A stretch of DNA of 64,000 nucleotides from contig CAVTAA010000002.1 in NCBI GenBank assembly GCA_963732575.1, forward strand, positions 192,509 through 256,508. The letters are read 5' to 3'. This document shows, piece after piece, positions 30,608 through 32,949 of this stretch; within the stretch, counting starts at the first letter, position 1, and every line of letters starts with the position of its first letter. The notes beneath the pieces are model-generated. The model was not told where the DNA came from. It made no database searches and saw nothing but the letters and a program-made list of their open reading frames with translations. Origin of the DNA: an uncultured Bacteroidales bacterium (GTDB lineage: Bacteria; Bacteroidota; Bacteroidia; Bacteroidales; VadinHA17). The translations under genes and the position numbers were made by a program.

Positions 30608-32455
30608 TCAGACCCTTATACCGATTATCGTTATATCATCAGTCTGGTCCTCATCCTTTTCCTCCCTCCATTTCTCAATCTCTTCATAGAGCCTGTCTCC
30701 CTGCTCGGGCATGGGTAATGCTGAGATTTGAAGCAGGAATTCACTCAGTCTTTTCCTGGTATACCTCTTGTGATTGCCTCCTCCGAACTGGTCAGCATAG
30801 CCGTCTGAACACAGGTATAACGCATCGTTTTCTTTAAGCTGAAGCTCCCCGGTGATAAAATTGACGTCCTCCCTGTCACCGATCCCTTCTCTGCCTGATC
30901 CGGACTTGATCCCGGTTATTCTGCCGTCAGTCACATGCAACAAACTGTTGCCGGTGCCTGAAAATGTCAGCAACCGGGTACGGCTATCGAGGTTGCACAA
31001 TATTATCTCCATATCATCCGAAACGCCGTTCTCCTGAAGATCCCGGTGCAGAAACCTGTGAACGCCGGTATAGAGGTACTGCATGATTTCAGCAGGATTA
31101 TCGAGTTTCATGATGTTAACAGCCTGATCCAGTATACCGTATCCGATGGTGCTTATCAGCGCTGCAGGGATGCCATGTCCGGTGCAGTCTGCCAGCGCAA
31201 AAATTATCTGGTCACCGGTCTTGCTGAAAAGGTAAAAATCACCGCTCACGACATCTTTTGGCTCATAGAAAACGAAGCTGTCAGGAAAGCATTCCCTGAT
31301 ATAGAGATCTTCAGGGAGGAAAGCCTTCTGGATATGCCGGGCATAGTTATAGCTTCCCTGGACTTCACCAATTGTCAGCCTGATCTTTTCATTGACCGTT
31401 GTGATCTTCTTATCGATCTCAGGTGAGGATGCTGCCAGGCCTCTTATCTCATCGCTCAGTTCGGTGGTCTCAACTAACAGTTTATGTATACTGCTCTGTG
31501 GCTTGATGGCGTATGACAATCTGCTGATTCGCCCGGGGTTAACAGGATAGGCTTCGTAATTAATATCCTGCAGAATAGCCGGTATTAGCCTGACCAGCTC
31601 CCTGTCCTTTTCCTTTTCAGCCTCTTCAAGCTCATCATACGGAATCAGTCCCGGGTGGATTTTCTTTTTTTCGTCTTTTACCTTGCCAAATGACCAGCCG
31701 TTCAGCCTTTTCTCCCAGCTCCACCTGAGATGCTCAACCTTCGCCATGGTCTCGATCTCTTCCTCTTCAATATGGAGAGTCATTGGCTTGAACCCCTTTT
31801 TTACGGGTCTGATCATGTAACCAATTGACAGTAATTTGGTTGGAATATGTGAGGCGTTGTCAATATTTGACTGCTGGAGCTCAGCAGGCAGGTCATTGAA
31901 ATGCTGAATGCCCGTTCCCTTATTGTTCACGGCACTGTCACCCTGCTTTCTCAGTTCATGAAGATATCTCGAGTGAATTGCTCTTGCAATCTTTTTGATC
32001 ATTGACTGGTTCACTCCCGTAACCTCCTCCTGCCTGAAGATCTCATACCCTGCTTTCTTCAGGCTGGCGGGGATCAAATAGTTAAGCTCAAGGAACAGGA
32101 TCTTCCTCTCTTCCCGGCCACCCTTGACCCTGAACCTTTCAAGATCCATCCTGACAAGCGCGGCAATCTCATCCTCTGTAATTAAACATGTCCGGCAGTA
32201 CTCTTCATACGGGCGCAGCAGAAGATTTATCGATTTTAGTTTTACCGGCACAGTGGAAGCATAATCACGCCAGAAACTCTTTTCACTCTTTGTGAGGTCC
32301 GCGAAATTCTTCAGAAATGAATCCGGATGAGCAAACAGTCCGGCTTTCTGTTTAATACCCTGGTAGAGTTCTTTCCCCACCGGGTCAATGAATTGTCTCC
32401 TGTAATCTGCCGGGTCAGCATGTTCATCGCTGAATTTGCCGGTTTTCAGTATCAT
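30608..32455 (-). CDS. RyR-repeat domain protein fused to a PP2C/SpoIIE-type serine phosphatase
   Basis: Intact 615 aa. The RyR repeat is MAKVEHLRWSWEKRLNGWSFGKVKDEKKKIHPGLIPYDELEEAEKEKDRELV. PP2C motifs are VSGDFY, ADCTGHGIPAALIS, LCSDGYADQFGG and DDITIIGIRV. Confidence 0.85.
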   Translation of the reverse strand: MILKTGKFSDEHADPADYRRQFIDPVGKELYQGIKQKAGLFAHPDSFLKNFADLTKSEKSFWRDYASTVPVKLKSINLLLRPYEEYCRTCLITEDEIAALVRMDLERFRVKGGREERKILFLELNYLIPASLKKAGYEIFRQEEVTGVNQSMIKKIARAIHSRYLHELRKQGDSAVNNKGTGIQHFNDLPAELQQSNIDNASHIPTKLLSIGYMIRPVKKGFKPMTLHIEEEEIETMAKVEHLRWSWEKRLNGWSFGKVKDEKKKIHPGLIPYDELEEAEKEKDRELVRLIPAILQDINYEAYPVNPGRISRLSYAIKPQSSIHKLLVETTELSDEIRGLAASSPEIDKKITTVNEKIRLTIGEVQGSYNYARHIQKAFLPEDLYIRECFPDSFVFYEPKDVVSGDFYLFSKTGDQIIFALADCTGHGIPAALISTIGYGILDQAVNIMKLDNPAEIMQYLYTGVHRFLHRDLQENGVSDDMEIILCNLDSRTRLLTFSGTGNSLLHVTDGRITGIKSGSGREGIGDREDVNFITGELQLKENDALYLCSDGYADQFGGGNHKRYTRKRLSEFLLQISALPMPEQGDRLYEEIEKWREEKDEDQTDDITIIGIRV

Positions 32456-32550
32456 ATGCGTTTATCGGTGACATCATGATGCTCAATTCTCATAACTACC
32501 TGTAAAACATAATAATAACAACTGATAATAGCATCAGTTCTCAGGAAATT

Positions 32551-32949
32551 TTATAGTTCTTCCAGTTCGATGAATTCAAACGGGAGTTTAATTATCTGAG
32601 ACATTTCAATTCCGGCTTCAAGCATATCGGTATCGTTTTTTACATAATACCATTTGACTGAAGCGTCAAATTCTTTTGAGCGTAACCGTGCCAGAACCTT
32701 GCAGATGTCAAGGATACATTTTGCGGAGGCAGAATTGAAGTAATCAAAATTGAAGTTAAATATTATGGGATTCTTGTTTTTTCCTGACAGCACCAGGTCG
32801 GCGAAATCATTCATCCAGGTGAGGATCGGCCCGAAAAACTCACGTACATCCTGAGGTCTTGACTCACCGGCGATCTCCAGAAAGTACTCCTCATGGTCGA
32901 GGATTACTTTAGGTGAAAAACTGGTTGGACTGATAATTAACTTCTCCAT
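32551..32949 (-). CDS. SiaC-like regulatory protein (DUF1987)
   Basis: 132 aa from MEKLIISPTSFSPKVILDHEEYFLEIAGESRPQDVREFFGPILTWM...FNFNFDYFNSASAKCI. It matches my memory of the DUF1987 layout. 95 nt upstream of the PP2C gene on the same strand. Confidence 0.7.
   Translation of the reverse strand: MEKLIISPTSFSPKVILDHEEYFLEIAGESRPQDVREFFGPILTWMNDFADLVLSGKNKNPIIFNFNFDYFNSASAKCILDICKVLARLRSKEFDASVKWYYVKNDTDMLEAGIEMSQIIKLPFEFIELEEL

Follow-up and report, generated by a model that had tools for sequence, protein, structure and literature searches.

How is a bacterial phosphatase that carries ryanodine receptor (RyR)-type units wired into a signalling circuit, and what might its input and output be? 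The question is raised by a locus of an uncultured Bacteroidales bacterium (assembly GCA_963732575.1, contig CAVTAA010000002.1, positions 192,509 to 256,508), where a gene for a protein joining RyR-like units to a PP2C/SpoIIE phosphatase domain (RyR-PP2C) lies beside a gene of the SiaC (DUF1987) family. Throughout, the window is the whole 64,000-nucleotide stretch that was analysed, and positions are counted from its first letter. Judged from sequence, the SiaC/RyR-PP2C pair is a SiaABC-type partner-switch module, a variant of the SiaABC switch of Pseudomonas aeruginosa. We lean towards a reading in which the RyR region serves as a nucleotide sensor of this switch, a neighbouring ABC transporter is the likely output and TIR-like domains encoded nearby are the likely source of the ligand. 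The two genes and their predicted parts are the following:

32551-32949, minus strand: SiaC-family (DUF1987) regulatory phosphoprotein, 132 amino acids (Pfam SiaC, PDB SiaC matches, position 5' of the phosphatase gene in relatives)
32731-32733, minus strand: codon of Ser73, which aligns with phosphosite T68 of SiaC (comparison with the P. aeruginosa SiaC peptide)
30608-32455, minus strand: RyR-PP2C phosphatase, 615 amino acids, cytoplasmic (Pfam RyR and SpoIIE, homologues with the same two domains)
31541-32413, minus strand: four RyR-like units, amino acids 15-305, which pair up (1+2 and 3+4) as RyDEP/Repeat12-like pseudo-protomers (hhalign, AlphaFold2, Foldseek)
31541-31780, minus strand: canonical RyR repeat, amino acids 226-305, with the putative nucleotide pocket H242/W245/H267/D284 (Pfam, conservation, spacing)
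31217-31540, minus strand: helical linker between sensor and catalytic domain, amino acids 306-413 (match to PDB 6K4E from residue 330, predicted helices from residue 322)
30611-31216, minus strand: SiaA-type PP2C/SpoIIE catalytic domain, amino acids 414-615 (Pfam SpoIIE, NCBIfam SiaA)

The first-pass annotation of this DNA had described an RyR and PP2C protein encoded beside a DUF1987 protein, and profile searches bore this out, the Pfam matches to RyR, SpoIIE and SiaC all being far above chance. The SpoIIE match covers amino acids 414-615 of the phosphatase (6.5e-21), and the best match of this part to a solved structure is P. aeruginosa SiaA (PDB 6K4E, 2.8e-32, amino acids 330-614), in an alignment that takes in the helices preceding the catalytic domain. 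Five metal-binding Asp residues (D406, D423, D551, D606 and D607) are invariant in all 77 full-length family members. The SiaC-like protein matches Pfam SiaC (PF09345, 1.1e-29, 103 bits against a cut-off of 24.5) as well as the P. aeruginosa SiaC structures 6KKO and 6K4F (3.8e-8). The stricter NCBIfam equivalog models gave much lower scores: 55 against a cut-off of 150 for SiaC (NF038265), and 170 bits (7e-50) against a cut-off of 700 for SiaA (NF038263), whose match is confined to model positions 395-657. The N-terminal sensor region of SiaA was unmatched, and RyR-like units stand in its place. With scores so far under the equivalog cut-offs, the two proteins are relatives of SiaA and SiaC, not orthologues. 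The earlier suggestion of a partner-switch module wired unlike the P. aeruginosa SiaABCD network was thus upheld, with SiaA and SiaC structure matches, an RyR region replacing the SiaA N-terminus and no GGDEF protein in the window.

P. aeruginosa SiaC is phosphorylated on T68 within the peptide LLYLNTSSIK (PMC7647112). In the window the aligned residue is Ser73, and a Ser at this position (in the motif YFNS) is invariant in 72 of the 72 loci that have SiaC, so that the phosphorylatable residue which a partner switch calls for is present. The residue that follows the putative phospho-Ser (codon at 32728-32730) is Ser in 41 of the 42 loci that carry a SiaB-family kinase and Gly or Ala in most loci of the clade, described below, that lacks it.

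In the mechanical list of open reading frames (ORFs) the SiaC-like frame occupies 32551-32988 on the minus strand and extends to a TTG at 32988; the start of its homologues aligns with the ATG at 32949, which gives 132 amino acids and matches the end coordinate first given. The spacings noted at first reading were both correct by ORF coordinates: the SiaC-like and phosphatase genes are 95 nucleotides apart, and the phosphatase gene is followed by the TIR-like gene TIR-A after 88 nucleotides (TTG start, 30519) or 100 nucleotides (ATG start, 30507). No terminator-like site was found by a scan of the two intergenic gaps around the phosphatase gene, and TIR-A is possibly co-transcribed with the SiaC/PP2C pair; since the promoter and terminator scan used a sigma-70 consensus that is unfit for Bacteroidota promoters, the absence of terminators in these two gaps is its one result used here. 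Both genes of the pair are intact despite frameshifts across the window. Many other window genes are broken into consecutive ORFs (33158-36245, 6555-10422, 12619-13780, 13749-17013, 23135-23963 and 60157-62472), among them an ABC transporter, two AcrB-type pumps, an outer-membrane efflux protein, a DUF4382 protein and a GH94 protein. These splits look like indel errors of a long-read assembly of a metagenome-assembled genome (MAG) rather than real pseudogenes.

The sensor region of the phosphatase contains one RyR repeat well above the Pfam threshold (PF02026, 1.5e-16, 60.8 bits against a cut-off of 27.4, amino acids 232-300), and the RyR signature string that had first drawn attention to it sits at amino acids 237-288. 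The plural in the original description, RyR repeats, stood in part: the remaining three units are degenerate and became visible by profile self-comparison and modelling alone. In the hhalign self-comparison unit 1 matched unit 3 at 96.7%, unit 2 matched unit 4 at 94.2% and unit 3 matched unit 4 at 67%. An AlphaFold2 model of amino acids 1-330 (predicted local distance difference test score, pLDDT, 82.5; predicted template modelling score, pTM, 0.79) shows a helix-helix-strand pattern four times. Its top Foldseek matches in the PDB are Repeat12 domains of ryanodine receptors (6UHI, 6UHA and 9L9B, E-values from 1.8e-6 to 1.5e-5, TM(target) of 0.55-0.63 over about 200 aligned columns); several of the matched structures are human RyR3 Repeat12 with bound ATP, ADP or AMP-PCP. 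In a viral structure library, phage RyR-domain proteins ranked top for the same model. Alignment with two phage RyR proteins showed that units 3+4 correspond to one phage-type protomer, so the region is probably an intramolecular pseudo-dimer with one canonical and one degenerate half; the pocket residues are lost in the second pseudo-protomer, units 1+2.

RyR domains of the phage RyDEP family bind or cleave 2'cADPR and 3'cADPR, isomers of cyclic ADP-ribose (cADPR) that TIR proteins produce, according to a 2026 preprint in which cADPR isomers were bound by six of the eight phage RyR domains assayed (PMC13232231). The ligand and catalytic residues of RyDEP are H75, W78, H100 and D117, conserved across its family (PMC13232231). 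The window protein has H242, W245, H267 and D284 with an identical spacing of +3, +25 and +42, and all four are invariant in 77 of 77 family members. They align with H60, W63, H85 and D102 of Arthrobacter phage Zeina gp73, and also with Escherichia phage sortkaff gp42; the equivalence to RyDEP itself (phage DyoEdafos) was drawn from residue spacing, with these two other phage RyR proteins as proxy. We infer that the canonical RyR unit would bind an adenine or ADP-ribose (ADPR)-type nucleotide through these four residues.

Two side observations concern these proteins. A C-R-T-C motif lies at amino acids 87-90 (32186-32197), at the junction of RyR-like units 1 and 2; C87 is kept in 76 of 77 family members and C90 in 77 of 77, and the motif could be a redox or metal site. 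The gene of Zeina gp73 (positions 424-867 of locus L160) lies two genes 5' of a gene for a PnuC-like nicotinamide riboside transporter, a neighbourhood that echoes the nicotinamide adenine dinucleotide (NAD)-salvage context reported for RyDEP (PMC13232231).

The pair belongs to a large family. More than 680 homologues of RyR-PP2C carry the same two Pfam domains, 120 listed homologues are 55-80% identical over their full length, and relatives occur in at least 427 species-representative genomes, all of them uncultured Bacteroidales or Rikenellaceae MAGs. Gene order was compared in the best 80 loci with 10-kb flanks. The conserved core of the cassette consists of a divergent ABC transporter gene followed by genes for a SiaB-family kinase, SiaC and RyR-PP2C. 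The SiaC gene is directly 5' of RyR-PP2C in 68 of 72 loci with enough flank and the divergent ABCG-type transporter is present in 61 of 64, which makes the transporter, and not a TIR-like gene, the most conserved neighbour. Chromosomal gene order is conserved around the cassette, which adjoins a PBP1-type gene and the ABC transporter and does not lie in a variable island. A SiaB-family kinase (NF038262, 95-98 bits against a cut-off of 85; PF19788) is encoded directly 5' of SiaC, between SiaC and the ABC gene, in 42 of the 80 loci; most of these have it joined to SiaC in a single protein of about 300 amino acids (for example L036, 8987-9889), and a few have it as a separate 5' gene (for example L050, 8977-9483 and 9487-9891).

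The first-pass annotation had seen neither a SiaB-like kinase nor a GGDEF protein here, which holds within the window. Searching the 64 kb by tblastn with four SiaB queries returned no kinase at E<=10, no SiaB or GGDEF Pfam domain was found in the main window ORFs of at least 110 amino acids, and no GG[DE]EF motif occurs in the six frames of the window or in ORFs above 150 amino acids of the 80 loci. Likewise, no member of the clade to which the window belongs has a SiaB kinase within 10 kb. In a neighbour-joining tree of the phosphatase the kinase-less loci, including the window, form one monophyletic clade, and the absence of the kinase is therefore a single lineage-specific loss from the cassette rather than a trait of the family. 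About 28 species-level genomes of this clade have both genes intact, at 56-83% identity, and the T68-aligned Ser and every catalytic Asp of the phosphatase are retained.

The pair was originally described as flanked by TIR-A downstream and by a divergently transcribed ABC transporter; ORFs and Pfam agree with this layout, the TIR identity itself being weaker. The relevant neighbours are:

28042-30519, minus strand: TIR-A, receptor-type protein of 825 amino acids with a TIR-like domain, a single transmembrane helix and TPRs (TPR matches, sub-threshold TIR_2)
33158-36245, plus strand: divergent ABCG-type transporter with a weak TerB-like N-terminal region, an ATPase domain and an ABC-2 permease (Pfam)
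36262-38655, minus strand: TIR-B, a TIR-like/TPR paralogue (same position in L001, L002, L004 and L042)
26229-27782, minus strand: B12-binding radical SAM enzyme (Pfam; next after a TIR-A-type gene in 35 related loci)

The ABC transporter gene starts at 33158, divergent from the SiaC/PP2C pair, and is broken in the window by a frameshift near 35109-35187; in relatives it is a single ORF of about 1025 amino acids. Its N-terminal extension of about 260 amino acids (33158-33943) is conserved in all relatives and gave only weak TerB matches (9 of 12 members, best E-value 3.6e-4), while nothing significant was found for it among PDB profiles. An FHA-like domain, suspected there from the sequence, was dropped since no tool result supported it.

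The TIR-like proteins are the second recurrent element. Four paralogues lie within the 64 kb (28042-30519, 36262-38655, 45473-47890 and 47900-50356), sharing an N-terminal domain of 200 amino acids, one transmembrane helix and a TPR ectodomain. TIR_2 is the sole consistent match of the N-terminal domain and recurs in 44 of 45 family members, at 17-18 bits against a cut-off of 28. Comparison by hhalign with a TIR_2 reference alignment, which was built from six bona fide TIR_2 proteins and one unverified sequence, gave 77% (P 2e-5) over 61 columns covering the first three strands; TIR chains of flax L6 and L7 match weakly (E about 0.9). Invariant W93 and E96 (SFAWEHEF) lie at the expected place of the catalytic Glu after strand C, where the alignment is of low confidence. 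The AlphaFold2 model of the domain, made from a 45-sequence alignment, shows a beta-alpha-beta order at a low pLDDT of 49, and Foldseek with it was uninformative. No significant match emerged from a PDB profile search with the domain, an exhaustive profile search recovered close relatives only and no bridge to annotated TIRs, and a homologue search returned only matches of at least 70% identity, none of them Pfam-labelled. The family of this N-terminal domain comprises 1373 clusters at 50% identity with variable C-termini. The TIR label first given to these proteins accordingly keeps moderate profile support and stays below the Pfam cut-off. From the membrane helix to the TPRs (amino acids 232-560), TIR-B also matches TIGR04510 (4.1e-67, score 227 against a cut-off of 400), and it looks like a TIGR04510-like receptor scaffold in which the nucleotide cyclase has been replaced by the TIR-like domain.

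Conserved co-occurrence with TIR-like genes in other genomes, on which the proposed link depended, was found. All 26 loci of the kinase-less clade with enough flank have a TIR-like gene as the next gene 3' of RyR-PP2C, on the same strand and after a gap of 8-561 nucleotides. Among the other clades an adjacent TIR-like gene occurs in 4 of 35 loci on the same strand and in 7 of 35 on either strand, and of the 26 loci that are fully flanked, 15 have one no more than 10 kb away. Over all clades, 35 of 46 fully flanked loci have a TIR-like gene within 10 kb, in at least five arrangements; for example, the TIR-like gene follows on the same strand, is convergent, is set apart by the radical SAM gene or lies on the far side of the ABC gene. 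Locus L040 has a TIR-like/TPR gene (7463-9847) directly ahead of RyR-PP2C (9947-11887) and lacks SiaC, SiaB and ABC genes nearby; further 5' of the TIR-like gene there are three response-regulator-like genes in tandem. As a rough inference, chance proximity would be expected in a few per cent of loci against the 35 of 46 observed, a contrast that shared ancestry inflates. Seen from the other side, of 21 metagenome loci that were seeded on the TIR-like domain and span at least 10 kb, only 4 contain an RyR-PP2C gene, hence most TIR-like paralogues lie elsewhere.

Two further observations concern the surroundings. The radical SAM enzyme is weakly similar to BchE-type cyclases and to enzymes that modify ribosomally synthesized and post-translationally modified peptides (RiPPs), and no convincing ORF for a precursor peptide was found in the 259-nucleotide gap between its gene and TIR-A. 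A bacterial serpin of 509 amino acids is encoded at 50567-52096 (Pfam Serpin, 1.1e-98), and its gene adjoins genes for an LVIVD-repeat protein, an outer-membrane beta-barrel protein and an extracytoplasmic function (ECF) sigma factor.

In the reading that we favour, nucleotide binding at the canonical RyR unit would alter PP2C activity through the helical linker. Coupling of the sensor to the catalytic domain by a helical linker is seen in other sensor-regulated PPM phosphatases. The change in activity would set the Ser73 phosphorylation state of the SiaC-like protein, and this protein would bind and modulate a protein encoded nearby, which takes the place of the diguanylate cyclase SiaD, in keeping with the proposal that DUF1987 proteins modulate adjacent proteins (PMC8457831). 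The best candidate for such an output, as the near-universal neighbour, is the divergently encoded ABC transporter with its presumably regulatory N-terminal extension. The ligand would probably come from the adjacent single-pass TPR receptors, by way of their cytoplasmic TIR-like domain. As the cognate kinase gene is gone from the cassette in the lineage of the window, the kinase would have to act in trans or have been replaced. The RyR region and the TIR-like domains may be linked in this way, a connection offered at first reading as pure speculation, which the phage precedent, the co-occurrence and the conserved ligand residues now suggest as a hypothesis and do not establish. More tentatively still, the locus can be pictured as an endogenous, non-immune pathway of Bacteroidales, in which TIR-like receptors would respond to an envelope or extracellular cue and form an ADP-ribose-derived nucleotide that acts through the RyR-PP2C/SiaC switch on the ABC transporter as an exporter.

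Several points weigh against the favoured mechanism, and some of them favour a different input. The TIR assignment is weak, given the sub-cut-off matches, the low-confidence model and the uninformative Foldseek search; the transporter is a candidate output by synteny, with a weakly matched TerB N-terminus; the kinase is absent from the window and its clade, so the phospho-cycle is assumed here; and the RyDEP precedent comes from phage proteins in a single preprint (PMC13232231). The RyR region might instead sense a general nucleotide such as ATP, ADP, ADPR or an NAD-related compound and feed an energy or metabolic input into control of the ABC transporter, the TIR-like genes being unrelated neighbours. 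Since Repeat12 of human RyR3 holds ATP, ADP or AMP-PCP in solved structures, the ligand could be of this kind. The tight TIR adjacency is confined to one monophyletic clade and amounts to roughly one phylogenetic event, and of the 26 fully flanked loci in the kinase clades, 11 lack a TIR-like gene inside 10 kb although their pocket residues are invariant, so a ligand source need not be a neighbour; moreover, the near-universal neighbour is the transporter. On the other hand, TIR-like genes recur in varied arrangements and on both strands, in L040 even where SiaC and the transporter are missing, RyR-PP2C is found in only about one fifth of the TIR-like loci, so that chance proximity should be rare, and most of the phage RyR domains assayed bound cADPR isomers. 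We regard a general-nucleotide input as improbable, though the likeliest of the alternatives.

It is unlikely that the RyR region acts as a RyDEP-like enzyme or sponge that ends ADPR-type signalling instead of being an allosteric sensor. The His/Asp catalytic dyad of RyDEP is kept as H242 and D284, but sponge-type RyDEP homologues hold the same residues without catalysis (PMC13232231), units 1+2 have no pocket residues, and fusion to a SiaA-type PP2C by a helical linker beside a substrate protein is the usual layout of a sensor-regulated PPM phosphatase. We give very little credence to the module of this lineage being a decaying remnant whose switch stopped working after kinase loss. The kinase is missing across the whole clade, the Ser after the phospho-Ser has changed to Gly or Ala there, and frameshifts abound in the window; nevertheless both genes have stayed intact across the species-level genomes compared, the catalytic Asp, pocket residues and phospho-Ser are all invariant, and the frameshifts resemble assembly errors in many unrelated genes that spare these two. 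A Thoeris-like anti-phage system, with TIR-like sensors and RyR-PP2C/SiaC as effector arm, is equally hard to credit. A TIR domain paired with a nucleotide-binding partner follows the logic of Thoeris, and RyR domains act on Thoeris signals (PMC13232231), but PADLOC gave no match for the PP2C protein, the SiaC-like protein or TIR-A and TPR-type matches only for TIR-B, and the TIR-like proteins, which have many paralogues, cross the membrane once and carry large TPR ectodomains. We ranked an anti-phage role low because of the missing defence-model match and the conserved chromosomal synteny.

Comparison with known systems places the predicted switch closest to SiaABCD. Shared features are a SiaA-type PP2C with its preceding helices, a DUF1987 protein with a phosphorylatable residue at the T68 position, adjacent genes on the same strand and, in relatives of the window cassette, a SiaB-family kinase beside SiaC. 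In contrast to SiaABCD, the sensor is a cytoplasmic module of four RyR-like units rather than the SiaA N-terminus, the phosphosite is Ser rather than Thr, ABC transporter and TIR-like/TPR neighbours stand in place of a SiaD/GGDEF output, and SiaB is mostly fused to SiaC in relatives and absent from the clade of the window. With RyDEP the protein shares the Pfam family, a Repeat12-like fold and the identical H-x2-W-x21-H-x16-D spacing; RyDEP is viral and a homodimer, whereas the window protein is cellular, phosphatase-fused and probably a pseudo-dimer. The RsbU/RsbP-RsbV-RsbW and SpoIIE-SpoIIAA-SpoIIAB systems likewise combine a sensor-regulated PPM phosphatase, a small phosphoprotein and a GHKL-type Ser kinase. 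In these systems the phospho-state of the small phosphoprotein decides its partner binding. They differ from the present cassette, which has a DUF1987 phosphoprotein that is STAS-like in structure only, an RyR input and no sigma or anti-sigma factor. Thoeris and related TIR defence resemble the locus in pairing a possible TIR-type producer with a domain that recognises ADPR signals; here, however, there is a membrane receptor with a TPR ectodomain, no defence-family match and conserved synteny, and what follows would be the dephosphorylation of a protein rather than the action of a toxic effector. Finally, TIGR04510, named putative peptide modification system cyclase, resembles the membrane helix-TPR part of TIR-B and the radical SAM neighbourhood, and differs in having an N-terminal cyclase domain where TIR-B has the TIR-like domain.

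To our knowledge, bacterial RyR domains have so far been assigned no cellular function. The preprint on RyDEP leaves open the role of cellular RyR domains and whether Repeat12 of animal ryanodine receptors reads TIR signals (PMC13232231). The RyR-PP2C family offers a cellular RyR domain with RyDEP-type pocket residues, fused to a readily assayed enzyme, encoded beside its likely substrate and preferentially linked to TIR-like receptors, and the question of cellular RyR function thereby becomes directly testable. It also widens the range of SiaABC switches: the input domain is new, relatives have the kinase fused to its presumed substrate, one lineage has shed the kinase, and the output would not be a cyclase. 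If the proposed link is true, RyR-PP2C would be the first receptor for TIR signals that has an RyR domain and is encoded by a host, and TIR signalling would for the first time be seen coupled to a Ser/Thr phospho-switch.

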